Assembly (NCBI GenBank): GCA_963721765.1
Contig: CAVRJP010000005.1
Location: 207,058-271,057, forward strand
Reading direction: 5' to 3'
DNA length: 64,000 nucleotides
DNA from: an uncultured Chloroflexia bacterium
Lineage (GTDB): Bacteria; Chloroflexota; Limnocylindria; Limnocylindrales; CSP1-4
Shown in pieces: positions 27,232 to 61,580 of this stretch (its first letter is position 1; each line of letters opens with the position of its first letter). The translations under genes and the position numbers were made by a program. Under the pieces are notes generated by a model that worked only from the letters and a program-made list of their open reading frames with translations, was not told the DNA's origin and searched no databases.

Positions 27232-27892
27232 CTATCTTCCCACGCCCGATCGTCCCGCCGACTCGAGGCAGCGCGTGATCGCCGCATCCGGGATGGCCCC
27301 GTGGCGGAGGATCCGGATGGTCTCGCCGGTCGCGTCGACGACGGTCGAGGCCGGCCCGCCGACCGATGGCCCGCCATCGAGGATGAGGTCGATCGCATCA
27401 CCCAGGAGCGCCTCGATCTCGTCTGCCGTTCGGCACTCGGGCTCGCCCGATCGATTGGCGGATGTCGTCGGCAGTGGCCCGACCGCAGTCGCCAGCGCGC
27501 GCGGCGGCGGGTGGTCCGGCACGCGCAGCCCGACCGTCGCGACGTCGCCCTGCGGCGGACCCCGTGAGCGCGGCGGGGAGCGGCCGATCCCCTCGCCGCC
27601 GGACGACGAGCGTCAGGCCACCCGGCCAGAACTCCCGGGCGAGCGCCATCGCGGGCGCCGAGAGCTCGCCGATGTCCGTCGACTGGTCCGCGTCGGCCAG
27701 GAGCAACGCGATCGCCTTGTCCGGCGGCCTCGACTTGGCCGCGAACAGGCGCTCGATCCCGCCTGGCGTCTCGAGCGCGACCGCAATCCCGTACACCGTG
27801 TCCGTCGGGACCGCGACGATGCCGCCGTCGGCGAGGATCCGGGCCGCTTCGTCGCGCGCTTCCGGGCCATCGACCAGGCGCCGAGTCGGCAT
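27232..27892 (-). pseudogene. tsaC: L-threonylcarbamoyladenylate synthase TsaC/YrdC, interrupted by an apparent +1 indel in a C-run at ~27560-27563
   Basis: YrdC motifs are split across two frames. Frame A: [13 protein letters not shown]...[24 protein letters not shown]. Frame B: [14 protein letters not shown]...[10 protein letters not shown]...IDLILDGG. Removing one nucleotide from the GGGG run restores ...[14 protein letters not shown]... Confidence 0.7.
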
Positions 27893-28808
27893 CAGGCCGG
27901 CGGGCCCGTCCGGCGCGCGGCGGAGCACGGCCACGCGCGGCAGCCCGCCAAGGTCCTTCTCGAGCTCGCACGACCAGCCGGCGAGGCGTTCGGCCGCGAG
28001 GTCCAGCATCGCCTGGCCCTGGTCCCCACCGATCTCGATCAGCGCGACGCCGTCGGGGGCGAGCGCTGCCGGGAGCTGGTCGAGCAGCCGGGCGATGATC
28101 CGGAGCCCGTCGGGACCGCCGTCGAGCGCGATCGCCGGCTCGAACGACGCCGCCCTCGGCAGCCCCGGGATGGCGTCCTTCTTCACGTACGGCAGGTTCG
28201 CCGCGATCACGTCCCACTGTCCCGTGTCGTCGCCCGGGATCAGGTCCGCCGTGGCGAAGTCGATGCGATCGCCCACCGCGTGGGCGACGGCGTTCTCCTT
28301 CGCGAGCTGGAGCGCGTCGTCCGAGATGTCGCTCGCCCGGATCTCGACCTCGTCCAGCATTCGCCGGCGGCGCAGCAGAACGGCAATCGTTACCGCGACC
28401 GCGCCACTCCCGACCCCGACGTCGAGGAACCGGATCGGGGGCGCGCCCGTGGCGCGCGGCGCGCTGACGAGGCGGCGCACGACCTCGAGCTCCGCGAGCT
28501 CGACGAGCCTCTCGGTCTCGGGCCGGGGAATCAGGGCGCGGGCATCGACCGCCGAACGCGAGCCCGTGGAACTCCTTGACGCCGCGGATGTACGCGACTG
28601 GCTCGCCACCTGCGCGCCGGTCGAGGGCCGCCTCGAAGCGGGCGGCCGAACCGTCGCCGACGGGCGCATCCGTGTGCGCCAGGATCGCCGTTCGATCGGT
28701 ATCGAGCGAATAGGCGAGGAGCAGCTCCGCGTCGAGCCGCGCGCTCTCCGAGCCCGCCTCGCGCAAGCGCGCGATGCCGACGTCGAGGAGCTCGCGCACG
28801 GACGCCAC
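27893..28808 (-). pseudogene. prmC: Release-factor glutamine N5-methyltransferase PrmC/HemK, interrupted by a +1 indel at ~28549-28556 and read through into tsaC as sequenced
   Basis: The N-terminus (...[16 protein letters not shown]) is in the 980-aa frame; the rest ([14 protein letters not shown]...FLDVGVGSG...NLPYV...) is in the 423-aa frame. The junction ttcGGCGGtcgat carries one extra G. There is no stop before the tsaC ATG as sequenced; a TGA sits at +1 overlapping that ATG (cTGATGc). Confidence 0.7.
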
Positions 28809-28810
28809 GG

Positions 28811-29917
28811 TCAGCTCCCGGCGCCGTCGTCGACGAGTGCGGCGAGCCGATCGGCCTGGTCGGTCTGGATGAGGGTGTCGATCAGGTCATCGAGGTCGCC
28901 GCCGAGCACGCCGGGCAAGTTCGACAGGCTCATCCCGATCCGATGGTCGGTCACGCGGTCCTGGGGATAGTTGTAGGTGCGGATCTTGTCCGCTCGATCG
29001 CCCCCACCGACCATCAGCCGCCGGGTCGCGGAGTCCGCCTCTCGCTGGCGCTGTCGCTCGGCCTCCTGGAGGCGCGACCGGAGCACCGCCATCGCCTTGG
29101 CCTTGTTCTTGTGCTGGCTCTTCTCGTCCTGGATCTCGACGACCGTACCGGTCGGCAGGTGCGTGATGCGAACGGCCGAGTCCGTGGTGTTGACCGACTG
29201 GCCGCCGGGGCCGGACGACCGCTTGACGTCGATCCGGAGGTCCCGTTCCTCGTCGATCTCGATGTCGGTCTCCTCGACCTCGGGCATGACGACGACGGTC
29301 GCCGTCGAGGTGTGGATGCGGCCGGACGACTCGGTCGTGGGCACGCGCTGCACGCGATGCGTTCCGCTCTCGAACTTGAGCCGCGAGTAGGCCCCGTCGC
29401 CGGCGATCTCGACGATCGCCTCCTTGACGCCGCCGATCCCGGTCTCGTTGAGGCTCATCACCTCGGTCCTGTAGCGGTGCCGGCCGCCGTAGCGCAGGTA
29501 CATCTGGAGGAGCTCGTTGGCGAACAGCGCCGCCTCCTCACCGCCGGCGCCGGCGCGGATCTCGAGGATGACGTTGCCGTCGTCGGCCGGGTCGCGCGGG
29601 AGCAGGAGCACCTTCAGCTCATCGAGGAGGTTCACCTCGTCGGCCTCCAGGCGCTCGATCTCCTCGTGGGCCATCCGCTTGAGCTCGTCGTCCGACTCGC
29701 TCGCGCGCAGCTCGTGCGCGCCCGCCAGCTCCGTGCGCGTGTCGGTGAGCCGTCGGTAGGCCTCCACGACCGGTTGGAGCCGTGCAGCCTCCTGGCCGAG
29801 CCGTTTGAGCGCGTCGATGTCGCGCAGCGTCTCGGGTCGGGCGAGCTCGGCGTTCACCTGGTCGTACTGGCGCACGACCTCGTCGAGCTTGGCGTCGAGG
29901 CTTTCCGGGGTGCTCAT
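28811..29917 (-). CDS. prfA: Peptide chain release factor 1
   Basis: GGQ motif ([24 protein letters not shown]) and the RF1 PxT-region context; 368 aa. Confidence 0.95.
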
Positions 29918-29942
29918 GGAGCGGGCGGAGGGTGGTGGCGCC

Positions 29943-30881
29943 TCACGCGGGCGCGGGCGCCCGCTCCAGATCGAGCCGTTCGCGCTCCGGCAGCTCCGAT
30001 CCGGCGGGCACGATCTCGCCGTCGGCCTCGAGGGCCTGCTGCATCGACACGATCGCGACCTCGATCTGATCGTCCGAGGGCTGCTTCGTCGTGATCATCT
30101 GGACGAGGATCCCCGGCGCCATGATCGCCTTCACGATCGGGTTGGCCCGGTGCCGTGCGCCGAATCGCAGGATCTCGTAGCCGATTGCGGCGATCACCGG
30201 CACGAGGAGCAGCCTGCTGGCGACCATCCACTCGATCGCCTGGCGGCCGACGAGGCTGAACGCGAAGATCGACAGGATGATCACGACGACGAGGAACTCC
30301 GTGCCGCAGCGGGGGTGGGCTGTCGGGTACTTGCGCACGGCGTCGGTCGTGAGCGGGTCGCCCGCCTCGAGCGCGTGGATCGTCATGTGCTCGGCGCCGT
30401 GGTACTCGAACACGCGCCGGATGTCGGGCATCCGCGCGATCAGCGCGAGGTAGCCGAGGAAGATCGCGACGCGGACCAGGCCCTCGACCATGTGCTGCAC
30501 CCAGTCCTGCTGGACGCTGCCGGCGGTCACCGATGCGATGAACAGGGGCAGCAGGAAGAAGACCCCGATTCCGATCCCGAGCGTCAGCGTGAGCATCAGC
30601 GCGACGGCGCCCTTGCCCAGCTCGATGCCCTCGGCGCTCGCCTGGATGTTCGCGCTCCGGATGAGCCAGCGCGTGCCCACCACGAGGGTCTCGTACAGGA
30701 CGATCAGGCCGCGCACGAATGGGGCGCGCGCGAGCCGCCAGCCATGCGGGCCCTTGCGCAGTGATTCGCTCGCCCAGACGATGTGGCCGTCGGGATGGCG
30801 GAACGCCACCGCGATCGCGTCGCGGCCGCGCATCAGGACGCCCTCGATGAGCGCCTGCCCGCCGTAGTTGAATTTCGGCAT
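29943..30881 (-). CDS. DUF1385 domain membrane-associated protein
   Basis: [16 protein letters not shown]...EYHGAEH...; DUF1385 is commonly encoded between rpmE and prfA. Confidence 0.7.
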
Positions 30882-30981
30882 CGGATCCTCGGTCGGATGG
30901 CTAACGGAGCGTCGCCTCCGACCTCGGAGGGTAGCGCGTGAGCGCCCGCCGCCGACCGCGCCAACCCCTCGTACGGTGCCG

Positions 30982-31194
30982 CTACGCCCGGACCTGGCGC
31001 TCCAGCCGCTTCTGGAACCGCTCGACCTGGCCCGCCGTGTCGATGATGTTCTGCGTGCCCGTGTAGAACGGGTGGCAGTTGCCGCAGACGTCGACGCGGA
31101 GCTCGGGCCGCGTGGAACCGACGATCCACTCGCGGCCGCACGAGCCGCAGTGGACCTTCGATTCGAAGTACTTGGGGTGGATCTCGGGCTTCAT
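30982..31194 (-). CDS. rpmE: 50S ribosomal protein L31 (Zn-ribbon type)
   Basis: [46 protein letters not shown] (CxxC...CxxC). The ATGA overlaps the rpmA stop. Confidence 0.93.
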
Positions 31195-31472
31195 GCCGTG
31201 GTCGCTTCCTCGGCCGCTGTGGCCGGGATCACGCGAACGCGCTTCTTCGACTTCGTGGCGTACTCGAACTTGACGTTGCCCGCGGTCGTCGCGAAGAGGG
31301 TGTAGTCGCCGCCGAGGTCCGTGCCCGAACCGGCGAGGAACGTCATGCCGCGCTGGCGGACGATGATCGTTCCGGCCGAGACGAGCTGGCCGTCGCCGGC
31401 CTTGATCCCGAGTCGTTGACCGCGGCTGTCGCGCCCGTTCTTGACGGAGCCGCCGGCCTTCTTGTGTGCCAT
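31191..31472 (-). CDS. rpmA: 50S ribosomal protein L27
   Basis: [29 protein letters not shown]... is the canonical L27 N-terminus. Confidence 0.95.
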
Positions 31473-31475
31473 GGG

Positions 31476-32220
31476 TCAGCCCTCCCCGCTCTTGCGGGTG
31501 CGTGATGTCTTCGGCTTGCTTGCCTTGGTGCCTGTTGCGGCGTCCGCGGCATCGGCCGCGGCCGCCGAACCGGTGGTATCGGGCTTCGCGCCCTTGGCGC
31601 GGGTCGTCGAGCTCTCCGCAGTCGAGGCCCCGGCTTTCGCGGGCTTGGCCTTCGGTGCGGCGCGTCGATTCCTTCGTTGCCGTCGTGGGCGCCTTGCCGG
31701 ACGGCTCTGCCTTGCTCACGCCACGCTTCGGCTTGCTCGAGGCCTTCGCTTCGTCGGTCTTCTCGGCCTTCGCCGCCCGATCGGCGGCAAGCTTCTCGGC
31801 GAGGGCCGCATCCTGCTCGGCCTGACGTCGGGCGCCTTCCTCGAGTCGCTGGCGCTCGGTCTTGCGCGCCTCCTCGGCCTTGACGGCGGCCTCGGCCGCG
31901 CTCTTGCCGTCGAGCACGATGTCGCTGATCCGGATGACCGTCAGCTCCTGGCGATGGCCCTTCTTGACCCGCCGGCGCGCCTTGGGCCGGTACTTGAAGC
32001 TGATGAGCTTTTCGCCCCGATCGCGTCGCAGGACCTCGGCCGCGACGGAAGCGTTCGCGATGACCGGATGACCAATCGATGCGGTCTCGCCGTCCGCCAC
32101 GAGGAGCACGCGGTCGAACGCGACCGACTCGCCGGCGCCGGCCTCGAGCAGCTCGATCTCGAGCTCCGTGCCGACCTCGACTCGGTATTGCTTCCCGCCG
32201 GTCTCGATGACTGCGTACAT
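31476..32220 (-). pseudogene. rplU: 50S ribosomal protein L21 with a long K/A/P/T-rich C-terminal tail; the reading frame is broken by an apparent 1-nt indel at ~31640-31680
   Basis: MYAVIETGGKQYRVEVG... (L21 core) continues as ...AKAEKTDEAKASSKPKRGVSKAEPSGKAPTTATKESTRR. That frame then runs unstopped through rpmA. A shift to the neighbouring frame gives ...PKAKPAKAGASTAESSTTRAKGAKPD...KASKPKTSRTRKSGEG* ending 3 nt before the rpmA ATG. Confidence 0.7.
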
Positions 32221-32410
32221 GGAACCCCTGGGCGTGGCTGGCGGTCGCGCGGCGACAACCGCGGCCTGGGAGACAGGAAAAGGCGCCTCGGCAGGCCGAG
32301 GCACGAGCCGGGATTGTACGGCCACGCTCAGGGAGCGTCAATTTGCGCCCCGTCCGGGCAGTGTCTCGGTCTGAGCACGGCGGGCGTTGACCTTGCCCAA
32401 GCTCCGGCCC

Positions 32411-32557
32411 ATGCTGAGGGACATGCTCCCGACCACTGCTTCCGGCCGCTTTCGGTTCATGTTCCTGCTGTTGGGCGGCATCTTGCTCGTTGGCGTCGTG
32501 CTAGGCCTCGTGATCGAACTCAACGAGCCAGTCCGGCTCGGTGGGTTCGCGCTCTGA
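32411..32557 (+). CDS. Hypothetical 48-aa single-TM protein
   Basis: ATG..TGA ORF with GC3 >80% (MLRDMLPTTASGRFRFMFLLLGGILLVGVVLGLVIELNEPVRLGGFAL). It lies in the lower-GC 760-nt gap between rodA and rplU. Not in the ORF track because it is under 60 aa. Confidence 0.3.
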   Translation: MLRDMLPTTASGRFRFMFLLLGGILLVGVVLGLVIELNEPVRLGGFAL

Positions 32558-32807
32558 GCGCGAAGCAGTCGAAGCTGCATACCGGGTGCGGCCAGCGAAC
32601 CGATTGACCAAGCCCGAGGGTCGACACATCCTTGCGGACGTGCAGGCAACCATTTCCCGCGCAGTCGTCGGCACCGTGGCGGTGCTGGTCGTGTTGACGC
32701 TGATCCTCGACCTCTTGACGTTCGGCCCTGCGTCGCACGCGCTCGATCCGACGCTTCCGTGGCTCCCCGTCTATATCGATGGACCACCGGGCATGGATCT
32801 GTACTGA
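32541..32807 (+). CDS. Hypothetical small membrane protein (88 aa, or 55 aa from the GTG at ~32640)
   Basis: TM segment VVGTVAVLVVLTLILDLLTF. High GC3 only in the distal two thirds. Overlaps the preceding small ORF in another frame, so the two could be one gene broken by an indel. Confidence 0.25.
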   Translation: MGSRSEREAVEAAYRVRPANRLTKPEGRHILADVQATISRAVVGTVAVLVVLTLILDLLTFGPASHALDPTLPWLPVYIDGPPGMDLY

Positions 32808-32983
32808 GCTAGATCCAGGCGCAAGTCGATCCGCAAGGCGTGCTCAGGCACGCCGTGGCTGGATGGGCAACCGTCAAGACGCAGATCGGTGGGCTGGCGG
32901 TGTTCCTCGCCCTTGCGGCTGGGACCTGGGCGGCCGTCAGGTTTGCGGAGTGTCTCCGGCACCAGCCCTCGCGCCACGGCGCC

Positions 32984-34162
32984 TCACCACTCGGCGCGGC
33001 CCTGGCGGATGTTGATGCTCTGGATGATCCCCAGGGCGAGCGCGATGCTGATGAGCGACGCGCCGCCATGGCTGATGAACGGCAGCGGAATGCCCGTGAT
33101 CGGCATGATCCCGACGACCATGCCGACGTTGACGACGAGCTGGAACAGGACCCACGCCGCGACGCCGCAGGCGAAGACGGTGCCGAACGCGTCACGTGAC
33201 CGCCAGCCGGCGAGCAGGATCCGCCAGAGCAGCGCGACGAACAGGAGGATGACGACCATCATCCCGACGAAGCCCAGCTCCTCCGCCAGCACGGCGGCGA
33301 CGAAGTCGGTGTCCTGCACCGGCAGCAGGCCCTGCGCGTTCTGCAGGCCGTTCGTGAGGCCGACGCCGAACCAGCCGCCGAGCGCCACTGCGATATGGGA
33401 CTGGTACAGCTGGTAGCCGGCGCCCTGAACGTCGGCGAGCGGGTTGAGGAACGACGTGAGACGGGACTTCTGGTAGTCCTCGAGGACATAGGCCCACACG
33501 AACGGCAGCGTCGCGATGGCGCCGACTGCGAGCACGAACAGCCAGCGCAGGCTGGCGCCCGACATGAAGAGCGTCGCCGCGACGATCGCGGCGAAGACGA
33601 GCGCCGTACCGAGGTCGGGCTGCAGCAGGACGAGGGCGAACGGTGGTCCGGCAAGGACGCCTGCCCCGAGGATCGACCAGAGCGACCCGAGCCGGCCCAT
33701 GCGGGTACCGAGGTAGCTCGCCAGCACGACGATCATCAGGACCTTGGCGAGCTCGCTGAACTGGAACTGGAGGCCGAAGATCGAGACCCAGCGGGAGGTC
33801 CCACCCACCCCGCTGCCGATCGCGAGCGTCACCACCAAGAGGCCCAGCTGGACGACGTACAGCGGCCAGGCGAACGTCTTGAGCCAGTGGTAGTCGAATG
33901 TGGTGGCGGCGAGGAAGACCGCCACGGCGATCGCGGTCCACATCAGGCCTCGCAGGAACACCGATCCCCCGTCGAAGATCCCGACTCCGGCAGTGGCCGT
34001 GTTGCTGTAGGCCATCGCCAGCCCGAAGCACAGCAGCAGGGCCGCGTAGGTCGCGAGCTGGAAGTCGAACGCGCGCCACACCGCCCCGACCCTTCGCGCG
34101 ACGAACTCGCTCCGCCGAGGGGTGCTGCTGACCCCGCGGAGGCCGACCGGTCGGACGCTCAT
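32984..34162 (-). CDS. rodA: SEDS-family peptidoglycan glycosyltransferase RodA
   Basis: About 10 TM; ...PDLGTALVF...; C-terminal GIMPITGIPLPFISHGGASL is the FtsW/RodA signature. Confidence 0.9.
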   Translation of the reverse strand: MSVRPVGLRGVSSTPRRSEFVARRVGAVWRAFDFQLATYAALLLCFGLAMAYSNTATAGVGIFDGGSVFLRGLMWTAIAVAVFLAATTFDYHWLKTFAWPLYVVQLGLLVVTLAIGSGVGGTSRWVSIFGLQFQFSELAKVLMIVVLASYLGTRMGRLGSLWSILGAGVLAGPPFALVLLQPDLGTALVFAAIVAATLFMSGASLRWLFVLAVGAIATLPFVWAYVLEDYQKSRLTSFLNPLADVQGAGYQLYQSHIAVALGGWFGVGLTNGLQNAQGLLPVQDTDFVAAVLAEELGFVGMMVVILLFVALLWRILLAGWRSRDAFGTVFACGVAAWVLFQLVVNVGMVVGIMPITGIPLPFISHGGASLISIALALGIIQSINIRQGRAEW

Positions 34163-49967: not shown

Positions 49968-50195
49968 GTGAAGCAGGCTGAGGAAACGACCTTCGTCGAC
50001 CTGATCGCCTGCGAACGTGATTGCCGCAACTGCTCCTACGCCGCCGCTCTCGACTGCGACGGCAACTGTGGCGTCTGCCCCCACAACAGCTACTGTCCCT
50101 GCGTGAACCCCGTCGTCGTCCGGAGCAAGTCGGCCCTGCGGCTGATCGAGCTCCGCCCGATCCTGCTCCAGGACCTCCGGGTCCAGAAGAACTAG
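49968..50195 (+). CDS. Small (75-aa) cysteine-rich protein with 8 Cys (C-x3-C-x2-C ... C-x3-C-x2-C-P-x5-C-x-C), translationally coupled to prfB
   Basis: GTG start with a strong RBS, high GC3, and the stop codon overlapping the prfB GTG (TAGTG). Sequence ...LIACERDCRNCSYAAALDCDGNCGVCPHNSYCPCVNP... Confidence 0.55.
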   Translation: MKQAEETTFVDLIACERDCRNCSYAAALDCDGNCGVCPHNSYCPCVNPVVVRSKSALRLIELRPILLQDLRVQKN

Positions 50196-51329
50196 TGGAC
50201 GCCGCGCGCGTCCGCGACCTCGTGGAGCGGATCCGATCGACCTCGGGGCGTCTTTGACCTCCCAGGCAAGCAAACGCGGCTGACTGAGCTCGAGGCCCTC
50301 GCCTCGGAGCCGGGATTCTGGGAGGACAGCCGAGCAGCCCAGGACGTGCTCCGCGAGGCCGACGCGCTTCGCGGCGATGTGGAGCTCTGGTCCGGCCTGC
50401 TCCGGCGCACCGATGACCTCGAGGCGACGCTCGAGCTCGCCCAGGAATCGGGCGACGCCGAGCTCGAGGCCGAGGTGGATCGCTCCATCGACGACCTCGA
50501 CCGCGACTTCGCTCGCGAGCGCACCCAGCTCCTGTTCTCCGGCGAGTACGACGAGCGCCCGGCGATCCTGACGATCAGCGCCGGCGCCGGTGGCACCGAG
50601 GCGACCGACTGGGCCGCGATGCTCCTTCGGATGTACCTCAGGTGGGCCGAACGCCACCGCTGGAAGACCGAGGTCATCGACCAGCAGGAGGGCGAGCAGG
50701 CCGGCCTCAAGAGCGTCTCCGTCGCGGTCGACGGTCGCGGCGCCTACGGCTGGCTCCGTGCCGAGCGCGGCGTCCACCGGCTCGTCCGCATCAGCCCGTT
50801 CGATGCCCAGAACCGGCGCCAGACGACGTTCGGGCTCGTCGAGGTCATGCCCGAGCCCGACGAGGACGCGCCGATCGAGCTCGACTGGGATGAGATCCGG
50901 GTCGACACCTACCGCTCGCAGGGTGCGGGCGGGCAGCACGTCAACAAGACCGACTCGGCGGTGCGGCTGACCCACCTGCCCACGGGCATCGTCGCGCAGA
51001 GCCAGAACGAGCGGAGCCAGACCCAGAACAAGGAGACCGCGATCAAGGTCCTGAAGGCACGGCTCCTCGAACAACAGCTGGAGGCGAAGGAGGAGGAGCT
51101 GCGCAAGCTCCGCGGCGAGCACGTCGAAGCCGGCTGGGGCAACCAGATCCGGAGCTACGTCCTGCACCCGTACCAGATGGTCAAGGACCTGCGCACCCAG
51201 GTGGAGACATCGAATACAACAGCCGTGCTGGACGGCGATCTCGACGCCTTCATGCAGGCGGAGCTGGAGCGGCTCGCGACTCGGACAGACGACCCGGGCG
51301 ATGGGTCAACCGCGGGACCGCGGGACTAG
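50195..51329 (+). CDS. prfB: Peptide chain release factor 2, requiring a programmed +1 ribosomal frameshift
   Basis: ORF1 is VDAARVRDLVERIRSTSGRL-stop. The +1 frame from GAC continues DLPGKQTRLTELEAL... into the RF2 body (SPF motif; GGQ as GAGGQHVNKTDSAVRLTHLPTG). The shift site gGGGcgtCTTTGAC matches the E. coli SD-like/CUU UGA C paradigm. Confidence 0.93.
50247..50258 (+). promoter_or_regulatory. RF2 autoregulatory +1 frameshift site (internal SD-like GGGG, slippery CTT, in-frame TGA followed by C)
   Basis: Sequence GGG CGT CTT TGA C at codons 18-21 of prfB. Confidence 0.85.
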
Positions 51330-58312: not shown

Positions 58313-58686
58313 GGGGATGCGTGGTCTCGACAGGGTCTGGTTGTCAGCGGACGCGAGCCGAGGTTGCCGTCAGGCCTCGTTAATCAGGCGGCAAAACGAA
58401 GTACCTGCCAACAAGCAGTCGACTCTCGCCCTCGCGGCTTAGGCCGTAAGGTGAGCGTGGAAACGGCCTCCGTCCCGCGGGCCGCGGAAGCGTCATGCAG
58501 CGGGGCTGCGAACCGGACGAGCGTCGCGTAGTCCGGGAACAAGCCCGATCTAGGGGCACGTGACTGGACCTCGGAGCAGGGTGCCGATCCTCGGCCCCGG
58601 GGTTGACGAAAATGATCGGACACGCTCGTAGTGGACGCTGTCGAAGGGCTCTGGACGGGGAGTTCGACTCTCCCCCATCTCCACCA
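58313..58686 (+). ncRNA. ssrA: Transfer-messenger RNA (tmRNA, SsrA)
   Basis: 5' GGGGATGCGTGGTCTCGACAGGG pairs with the 3' ...GGACGGGGAGTTCGACTCTCCCCCATCTCCACCA (T-arm plus acceptor, G3:U wobble, ends CCA). Internal tag reading frame ...GCC AAC AAG CAG TCG ACT CTC GCC CTC GCG GCT TAG gives ...ANKQSTLALAA*. Confidence 0.9.
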
Positions 58687-60553: not shown

Positions 60554-61580
60554 CTACCGCCAGCCGAGGTCCGGGGCCACGAACCTGAGGATGCTCTCGA
60601 CGGCGTGGGCGTTGTACTCGACGCCGAGCTGGTTCGGGACCGTCAGCAGCAGGGTGTCCGCGGCCTGGATCGCGGTGTCGTCGGCGAGCTGCTTGACGAG
60701 GACGTCGGGCTCCGCGGCGTACGAGCGTCCGAAGATCGCCTTCGTCTGGGCGTCGATGTAGCCGACCTTGTCGGCGTCCTCACCGCATCCGTCCGAAGTA
60801 CGCCCGGTCTCGATCATCGACCAGCGCGAAGATGCTCCGGCTGACCGAGACGCGCGGCTCGCGCTGGTGCCCGGCCGCCGCCCAGGCCTCCCGGAAGAGC
60901 CGGATCTGCTCGGCCTGGAGCTCGTGGAAGGGCACACCGGCGTCCTCGGTCATGAGCGTCGAGGACATCAGGTTGAGGCCCTGCCTGGCCGCCCATTCGG
61001 CGGTCGGGCGTGAGCCGGCGCCCCACCAGATGCGGTCGCGAAGCCCGGGCGCGTGCGGCTCGGGTCGCAGCAGCCCCGGCGGATTCGGGAACATCGGGTT
61101 CGGGCTCGGCTCGGCAAACCCCATGCCGGAGAGCACGCCCAGGAACACCCCGGTGTGGTCGCGCGCCAGGTCGGCGCCGACCGGGTCGTCCTCGGCAGGC
61201 TGGTAGCCAAAATGCCGGAAGCCATCGATGACCTGCTCAGGCGAGCCGCGGCTGATCCCCAGCTGCAGCCGGCCACCGGCGATCAGGTCGGCGGCCCCGG
61301 CGTCCTCGGCCATGTACATCGGGTTCTCGTAGCGCATGTCGATGACCGCCGTGCCGATCTCGATCCGCTTCGTCCTGGCACCGATCGCAGCGAGCAGTGG
61401 AAAGGGCGAGGCGAGCTGCTGGGCGAAGTGGTGGACGCGGAAGTAGGCGCCGTCGGCCCCGAGGTCCTCGACCGCCTCGGCGAGCTCGATCGACTGGATG
61501 AGGGCGTCCGAACCCGATCGCACCTGCGAGTAGGGCGACGTGGACCAGTGCCCGAACGAGAGAAACCCGATCTTCTTCAC
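60554..61580 (-). pseudogene. Luciferase-like (LLM) flavin/F420-dependent oxidoreductase, interrupted by an apparent +1 indel at ~60783-60790
   Basis: N-part (VKKIGFLSFGHW...RVSVSRSIFALVDDRDRAYFGRMR*) in one frame; C-part (...GEDADKVGYIDAQTKAIFGRSYAAEPD...LLLTVPNQLGVEYNAHAVESILRFVAPDLGW*) in the +1 frame. Junction taCTTCGGACGGATGCGGtgag. Confidence 0.65.

Follow-up and report, generated by a model that had tools for sequence, protein, structure and literature searches.

Five +1 frame breaks in prmC, tsaC, rplU and an LLM-class oxidoreductase gene as probable errors in a long-read metagenome consensus

The window, which is the whole 64,000-nucleotide stretch of DNA that was analysed, contains five frame changes, all on the minus strand and each amounting to a net gain of one nucleotide. 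They are situated in prmC, tsaC, rplU and the gene of an LLM-class oxidoreductase (Table 1). Judged from sequence comparison, the five breaks are very likely single bases wrongly inserted into the consensus when long metagenome reads, most likely from Nanopore alone, were assembled. The organism very probably has intact and separate prmC, tsaC, rplU and LLM genes. An earlier note on this DNA had counted five single-base insertions and blamed sequencing or assembly errors. The count was confirmed, and the proposed cause is supported by near-identical contigs, by the repair of the genes and by a census of relatives.

Table 1. Affected genes and positions of the frame breaks in the window
Feature	Position	Strand	Remarks
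prmC (release-factor glutamine methyltransferase)	27892..28808	-	304 aa after removing 28551 and 27908; Pfam PrmC_N and methyltransferase hits
prmC extra base	28551	-	absent from L161; C on the gene strand, G on the plus strand; parts PrmC_N from the methyltransferase
prmC 3' extra base	27908	-	absent from L161 and L162; abolishes the prmC stop
tsaC (L-threonylcarbamoyladenylate synthase)	27232..27892	-	219 aa after removing 27553
tsaC extra base	27553	-	absent from L162; G on the gene strand
rplU (L21)	31476..32220	-	extension of about 145 aa; core intact, tail shifts frame once
rplU break interval	31625..31715	-	one net extra base; from target-frame stop and tail homology
LLM-class oxidoreductase	60554..61580	-	last ~75 codons in the next frame
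LLM break interval	60783..60793	-	one net extra base; from spacing against homologues

Structure of the broken genes

At all five sites homology and an open frame are found on both sides of a net single-base break, the pattern of a single-base indel artefact. A six-frame Viterbi scan of coding potential over the whole window showed that the coding signal carries on over each break. The scan gave no further unexplained frame change; beyond the breaks it picked out just one site, the genuine programmed one of prfB. Once corrected, the frames are all open as far as the orthologous stop, with no in-frame stops and no larger indels. Each gene has one lesion, except prmC, which has two; neither the multiple lesions nor the relaxed constraint of a pseudogene were found. 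Three other regions were considered as frameshifts and rejected: the atpE start region (22.2-22.5 kb) has an ordinary GTG start, the zinc-finger end of the SecA tail (48.75-49.05 kb) is intact, and 32.2-33.0 kb holds no conserved gene.

The first 85 codons of prmC, encoding the N-terminal part, lie in one frame, the methyltransferase codons in the next. The spacing between the 'LAF' and 'DARAL' motifs is 7 nt in the window and 6 in all relatives. Alignment with L161, one of two near-identical contigs described below, identifies the extra base as 28551 (TTCGG[C]GGTCGAT on the gene strand), where the earlier note had expected it, at about 28550. The closest syntenic relative, L081, reads TTCGGC-GTG at this site. 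As read, prmC and tsaC occupy a common frame with no stop between them. This apparent PrmC-TsaC fusion is seen because a second extra base, 27908, removes the prmC stop. Base 27908 is missing from two contigs of two different runs, L161 and L162. Without it, the PrmC stop TGA (27894-27892) overlaps the tsaC ATG (27892-27890), in agreement with the earlier proposal that a further indel had created the fusion and hidden such an overlap. The repaired PrmC is identical to P0002 at 296 of 304 residues, with no gaps.

In tsaC the Sua5_yciO_yrdC profile (Pfam PF01300) is divided between two frames, the first holding positions 2-90 and the next positions 97-178. Alignment with L162 places the extra base at 27553 (GCC[G]CAG). 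It had been attributed to a GGGG run at about 27560, which is 6-9 nt off; that run (27559-27562) is the same in both near-identical contigs. Repaired TsaC matches the intact protein P0240 at 215 of 219 residues without gaps; the corresponding P0240 sequence is [14 protein letters not shown].

The L21 domain encoded by rplU is complete in a single frame (Pfam PF00829, positions 1-99 of 99), and the frame change is located in a lineage-specific, Lys/Ala-rich C-terminal extension. The statement that essential genes are disrupted is too strong for L21, where the essential core is intact and the tail alone is affected. As it stands, the L21 frame runs over rpmA and stops in the frame of rpmE. The next frame ends in '...RKSGEG' and a stop one codon ahead of the rpmA ATG; in relatives the L21 gene is in one frame and ends in '...RKSDEG' and a stop at the same distance from rpmA. 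The break, known as an interval rather than a single base, is bounded upstream by the target-frame stop at 31718-31716. Its downstream bound is the tail homology, 'AKPDTTGS' and the 'RKSGEG' end being matched by 'AKADTTE/GG' and the 'RKSDEG' end of the relatives. Contigs carrying the exact L31 of the window are 78-87% identical to it in DNA and confirm the architecture of L21 rather than the exact site. A concatenated TsaC and L21 query, which returned proteins of at least 256 aa only, did not find a near-identical L21. Among proteins of at least 256 aa, fused L21-L27 and L21-L31 frames (n = 13) occur only in ENA long-contig proteins, with none from JGI and none from Logan.

The LLM gene has 'AYFGRMR' and a stop in one frame, and 'EDADKVGYID...GWR' and a stop in the next. 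From 'FGR' to 'VGY' there are 22 nt in the window compared with 7 codons in homologues, which have 'AYFGR', seven residues and 'VGYID' in a single frame, continuous over the junction. Past the break, the 78-aa piece aligns with the C-termini of hundreds of homologues and by itself gives no Pfam hit; Pfam PF00296 (positions 14-235 of 314) is found in the upstream frame only. The Pfam, NCBIfam and PDB alignments of the repaired protein end just short of the junction, which was confirmed solely through a search of a representative library. The earlier observation that motifs continue in the neighbouring frame was confirmed, and the breaks it had noticed in rplU and the LLM gene were both recovered.

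Near-identical contigs and relatives

Contigs L161 (run ERR11593888, 98.5% identical to the window over 1560 nt) and L162 (run ERR11593400, 97.6% over 1047 nt) come from Logan, in which every SRA run was assembled at k = 31. A search of the Microflora Danica papers for the platform of these two runs gave no result. Relative to the window the two contigs show substitutions and exactly three 1-nt gaps, all of them extra bases of the window (28551, 27908 and 27553). The comparison covers these prmC and tsaC sites; for those in rplU and the LLM gene no near-identical sequence turned up. Deleting the three bases gives full-length PrmC and TsaC, 97-98% identical to intact orthologues, and restores the usual TGATG stop/start overlap. 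Because near-identical strains lack the extra bases, an artefact is the favoured reading, and it is a strong inference that the bases are errors and not strain-specific mutations. In L081, which has 82% nucleotide identity to the window, PrmC, TsaC and L21 are each in a single frame. Comparison with orthologous loci had been suggested as a check, and the near-identical contigs and L081 proved intact. With PrfA as query, none of the matches listed in scans of genome and metagenome contigs exceeded 80% protein identity. Looked up as exact sequences, the PrfA, L27 and DUF1385 proteins of the window and its product P0001 matched no contig.

The relatives were surveyed for seven conserved genes in 17 loci from Nanopore-only MFD MAGs and in 49 other loci, 8 of them in other MAGs and 41 on metagenome or Logan contigs. 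The Nanopore-only MAGs have 13 frame breaks, in 6 of the 17 loci. None was found in the 49 loci, whose short-read label is based on contig naming (k141, NODE, metabat, JGI Ga and the like). The difference between 6 of 17 and 0 of 49 has a hypergeometric P of about 1.4e-4. The 13 breaks are +1 without exception and scattered in position. The LLM orthologue on L172, a Flye-style ENA contig, has two single-base insertions of its own, at places with no break in the window. Every recorded break is thus an insertion (5/5 in the window, 13/13 in the MFD relatives, 2/2 in L172). Since the breaks in L172 and the unrelated Nanopore-only MAGs are scattered and exclusively +1, they point to the method rather than the lineage.

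The MFD-LR MAGs were assembled with Flye and one round of Medaka, without short-read polishing (PMC12313526). On inspecting the catalogue for errors of the Nanopore type, their authors saw a lower coding density in MAGs of lower coverage and tied the errors to low coverage (PMC12313526).

Other explanations of the extra bases

The breaks could be genuine, very recent frameshifts of this strain, with prmC, tsaC and the LLM gene as young pseudogenes and L21 altered in its tail, the loss being tolerated through a second copy elsewhere or in a defective lineage. The contigs lacking the bases are indeed strictly from other strains (1.5-2.4% divergent from the window), and the 64 kb analysed is part of a larger genome, where a second copy might lie. 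However, four independent frame-breaking insertions would be needed inside 4.1 kb, and the genes hit are conserved, occur once in the window and are intact in 49 of 49 other MAG and contig loci. No other lesions remain after correction, and the same +1 signature recurs, at other positions, in L172 and in unrelated MAGs built from Nanopore reads only. Pseudogenes of degrading genomes such as that of Mycobacterium leprae are likewise frameshifted forms of otherwise conserved genes. In reductive evolution of that type, pseudogenes carry multiple lesions in both directions and have lost their codon bias. Unlike them, the window genes, core translation factors among them, are restored by removing single bases and have an intact coding signal. 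Recent mutation in this strain is therefore improbable, though it is the best of the alternatives.

A little less probable still is that the extra bases are real in this strain and represent a local burst of +1 insertions in prmC, tsaC, the L21 tail and the LLM gene, which the cell would tolerate or else read through by +1 frameshifting of an unprogrammed kind. If this were true, the all-insertion signature in long-read Limnocylindria genomes would be biology that short-read assemblies have missed.

PrmC-TsaC might be a natural bifunctional fusion, with errors at the other sites: the genes are adjacent, share a frame with no stop and would be joined by a plausible linker of about 10 residues. 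However, among the 120 best matches to the repaired-fusion query, the window's own product P0001 is the sole protein with both a PrmC-type domain and PF01300. The near-identical strains have PrmC and TsaC as two genes, L161 and L162 lacking base 27908 and having the TGATG overlap, and in L081 and L020-L025 prmC and tsaC do not share a frame. The fusion is thus very unlikely to be natural.

Finally, the earlier note had raised the possibility of tolerated or recoded frameshifts, and real extra bases might be bypassed by programmed +1 frameshifting or transcriptional slippage, giving full-length proteins. The window contains a control, the canonical programmed site of prfB (RF2), CTT TGA C at 50252-50258 with GGGG 3 nt upstream. 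The programmed prfB site is conserved across bacteria. The five breaks have the same +1 direction, but none of them (0/5) has a slippery codon before a stop or rare codon, or a Shine-Dalgarno-like stimulator further upstream, and none has the long A/T run for transcriptional slippage. Recoding is contradicted because the sites are not conserved, even strains about 98% identical and L081 lacking the bases, and with the breaks of relatives scattered and confined to Nanopore-only assemblies it has next to no probability.

Character of the insertions and their significance

We return to consensus errors as the preferred explanation. Four of the five breaks lie within 4.1 kb (simulated P = 0.005 in a post hoc test), and this clustering calls for some local cause. 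The earlier description of an extra G/C in a homopolymer holds loosely: the inserted C or G splits or adjoins a short run and does not lengthen it. Compared with the near-identical contigs, GGGG becomes GGCGG, AGGG becomes ACGGG and CCC becomes CCGC. Four of the five insertions create a CpG. The three base-resolved insertions (28551, 27908 and 27553) are at or adjoining strain-variable positions, in the less conserved genes. The genome has a GC content of about 70%.

The local cause could be low coverage, or co-occurring strains that have been collapsed into one sequence. With regard to the latter, the strain-variable positions and the new CpGs would fit a C/G variant written as 'CG' by the consensus step, and a plain over-call beside a SNP fits equally well.

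The breaks resemble the indel errors of Nanopore-only assemblies in several respects: they are net single-base breaks with both halves homologous and open, the three base-resolved extra bases are missing from independent near-identical sequence, and among relatives such breaks are confined to Nanopore-only ones. The classic account of Nanopore errors, however, emphasises deletions in long homopolymers and in low-GC genomes, whereas here C or G is inserted, at about 70% GC, so as to split or adjoin runs of 3-4 bases, usually forming a CpG.

The finding is not new biology but a matter of data quality. A few single-base consensus errors make core genes appear as pseudogenes and produce false 'fusion' proteins. 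Such errors have already spread into public protein collections: these contain the 423-aa PrmC/TsaC chimera of the window (P0001, whose NCBI/ENA record derives from a 948,798-bp contig) and L21-L27 fusions from similar assemblies. The signature described here (insertions only, of C or G at runs of 3-4 bases, usually giving CpG, and concentrated in the less conserved and strain-variable genes of a lineage with 70% GC) may aid polishing tools, and both the developers and the users of Nanopore-only MAG catalogues may benefit from it.

Frame breaks in the window

The gene block glyA-tsaC-prmC-prfA-DUF1385-rpmE-rpmA-rplU lies on the minus strand, and the G+C content is about 70% across the whole window. 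Three-frame translation, combined with Pfam domain matches in each frame, found all five frame breaks claimed in the earlier note, with minor corrections. The prmC gene starts with GTG and is read in the correct frame to "...EFHGLAF", its remainder lying one frame over; PrmC_N is found by itself in the first piece. The second prmC frame enters tsaC without a stop. A further frame change occurs just after "LPAALTG" in tsaC and splits the Sua5_yciO_yrdC domain, with positions 2-90 in one frame and positions 97-178 one frame over. The luciferase-like monooxygenase (LLM) gene reads "DRAYFGRMR*" in one frame and has its final ~75 codons in the next.

The rplU gene is also broken as claimed, but its conserved L21 domain is not disrupted: the domain is complete in one frame (Pfam positions 1-99 of 99) and the frame changes beyond it, within a long C-terminal extension rich in Lys and Ala. 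Read as it stands, the ORF crosses rpmA and terminates in the frame of rpmE. The further contigs with the window's exact L31 protein all carry single-frame L21 genes that end "...RKSDEG*" just before rpmA. The window's shifted frame ends in the homologous "...RKSGEG*", which bounds the shift. Throughout the lineage, L21 has a low-complexity Lys/Ala/Thr-rich C-terminal extension of ~100-145 residues (seen also in loci L163-L169), always ending one codon before the rpmA start. This extension is a hot spot of false L21-L27 and L21-L31 fusions in long-read assemblies.

A six-frame coding-potential Viterbi scan of the full 64 kb, for which the window's long ORFs served as training set, recovered the known break sites; the sole additional frame change was the programmed site of prfB. 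The scan can thus detect such events, and it shows no others in the remainder of the window. A stretch of 4.1 kb contains four of the five breaks (simulation P = 0.005, a post hoc test).

The ~770 nt upstream of rplU lack a coding signal and gave no Rfam match at the gathering threshold. Conservation there is limited to the nearest 110-190 nt, perhaps a leader or promoter, with 82-85% identity in L081, L163 and L164; L163 has four additional small genes in this region. The window carries a tmRNA gene (Rfam RF00023, 111.9 bits; tag peptide ANKQSTLALAA) and no tRNA genes.

Coordinates of the frame breaks and neighbouring features
Feature	Contig	Position	Strand
prmC GTG start	window	28808	-
prmC extra base	window	28551	-
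prmC 3' end extra base	window	27908	-
tsaC extra base	window	27553	-
rplU frame shift	window	31625-31715	-
LLM frame break	window	60783-60793	-
LLM orthologue insertions	L172	1824, 2105	
L21 extension	window	31476-31915	-
L21 extension	L081	2512-2922	
PrmC "ANLPYV"	window	~28185-28196	-
prmC hypervariable patch	window	28120-27900	-
Region upstream of rplU	window	32230-32990	
prfB (ORF0 GTG at 50195)	window	50195-51329	+
prfB SD-like GGGG	window	50245-50248	+
prfB CTT TGA C	window	50252-50258	+
tmRNA	window	58313-58686	+

Near-identical contigs and repair of prmC and tsaC

Near-identical sequences were sought with the repaired PrmC-TsaC protein and, separately, with TsaC. The first query returned P0001, the window's own 423-aa chimeric ORF as recorded in NCBI/ENA on a 948,798-bp contig (an out-of-frame start, the C-terminal part of PrmC, the N-terminal part of TsaC and an out-of-frame end), and P0002, an intact PrmC of 304 aa with 97% identity. 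The source of P0002, Logan contig L161 (ERR11593888), matches window 29119-27558 with 98.5% identity and differs from it by substitutions and exactly two 1-nt gaps, both extra window bases (28551 and 27908). The TsaC search returned P0240 (219 aa, 98% identity), encoded on Logan contig L162 (ERR11593400). This contig is 97.6% identical to window 28178-27130 and lacks base 27553 as well as 27908, the second contig to lack the latter. In Logan, the contigs of every SRA run are built from unitigs of k = 31, with singleton k-mers dropped.

Deletion of these three bases from the window yields a PrmC of 304 aa (296/304 identical to P0002) and a TsaC of 219 aa (215/219 identical to P0240), both aligned without gaps, and the TGA of repaired prmC overlaps the tsaC ATG (TGATG). 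The recovery of two separate full-length genes bears out the prediction that the apparent PrmC-TsaC fusion hides a further indel, base 27908 being extra relative to both contigs. The tsaC insertion had been assigned to a GGGG run, but neither contig differs from the window in that run; the extra base is 6-9 nt further downstream.

Towards its 3' end, prmC has a locally hypervariable patch of 220 nt with 17 of the 23 substitutions relative to L161; the flanks of the patch are >99% identical, suggesting recombination or strain mixing there.

Frame breaks among relatives

PrfA scans place the window in Chloroflexota near 'Candidatus Limnocylindria', with a top protein identity of 78-80% among the matches listed; many of the relatives listed are Microflora Danica (MFD) MAGs. 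The closest syntenic relative among those listed is the JGI contig L081 (82% nucleotide identity), which keeps the prmC-tsaC adjacency. The comparison with orthologous loci that the earlier note had proposed gave single-frame genes: PrmC, its stop preceding tsaC, TsaC and L21 in L081, the last having a similarly long tail and a stop one codon ahead of the rpmA ATG, and likewise the LLM homologues. Hundreds of homologues match the 78-aa downstream LLM piece at their C-terminal ends. P0362, P0363, P0367 and P0373 read "SRSIFALVDDRDRAYFGR - 7 residues - VGYID..." in a single frame, and the window has 22 nt in place of the 7 residues.

The prmC and tsaC genes are also directly adjacent in L020-L025; most relatives (L004, L008, L009, L013, L023 and others) have another gene of ~0.9-1 kb between them. 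PrmC normally carries an NPPY catalytic motif, where the window, L081 and P0002-P0004 read "ANLPYV", a variant conserved across the lineage.

Breaks were counted in seven conserved genes with the intact proteins of L081 as reference. Six of 17 MFD MAG loci (L006, L012, L015, L017, L019 and L020) contained 12 breaks; none was found in 8 loci from other MAGs or in 41 from metagenome or Logan contigs (hypergeometric P ~1.4e-4 from these counts, the "short-read" group label being inferred from contig names). A finer analysis gave 13 breaks, all +1 and at scattered positions; under the coarser split one more transition is possible in L015, either -1 or two +1 events. The poorly conserved prmC holds 8 of the 13, and prfA, L31 and the L21 core hold none. 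The MFD long-read MAGs are Nanopore-only, assembled with Flye and one Medaka round without short-read polishing; their authors checked the catalogue for Nanopore-associated errors and reported a lower coding density in MAGs of lower coverage (PMC12313526). The +1 breaks suggest an insertion bias, dependent on context or diversity, in these high-GC assemblies. The LLM orthologue on L172, a Flye-style ENA contig, has two more single-base insertions, both at places where the window itself is unbroken. Every event, whether in the window (5), in the MFD relatives (13) or in L172 (2), adds a net single base, a direction that points to a signature of method and not to a mutational spectrum.

Origin of the extra bases

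The L161 and L162 contigs, the repair test and the census support the original interpretation, and the sequences make it very probable that the five breaks are indel artefacts and not a real biological feature. That they are young pseudogenes, the extra bases being genuine in the strain, is most improbable, since this would need four independent insertions in 4.1 kb, all in core genes that are otherwise undamaged, and the window breaks share their signature with assemblies of unrelated samples. Judged by sequence, recoding of real extra bases by programmed frameshifting is ruled out: prfB, the positive control, has a canonical +1 site, in which a short ORF0 leads to CTT TGA C with an SD-like GGGG 3 nt upstream and the PCRF and RF-1 domains lie in the +1 frame thereafter, whereas the five sites all lack such a motif and none of them is conserved.

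The five insertions that could be placed at a single base, three of them in the window and two in L172, are C or G, as had been claimed, but they split or abut short runs (GGGG to GGCGG, AGGG to ACGGG, CCC to CCGC) instead of extending a homopolymer. Four of them make a new CpG and three the pentamer CGCAG (CCGCAG in the window's tsaC, ACGCAG twice in L172), possibly a signature of basecalling, of polishing or of a methylation motif. The three in the window lie at or beside strain-variable positions. They could be consensus errors where reads of co-occurring strains collapse, for example a C/G variant written "CG"; this would fit the variable positions, the variable patch in prmC and the excess of prmC among MFD breaks. 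A plain over-call beside a SNP, or a methylation-related miscall, would fit equally well.

Thirteen "fused" L21-L27 or L21-L31 proteins (P0136, P0154, P0155, P0184, P0186, P0190, P0191, P0198, P0211, P0212, P0219, P0222 and P0235) are all ENA long-contig entries, with none from JGI or Logan. Together with P0001, they show that public protein collections already hold artefactual proteins from such assemblies.
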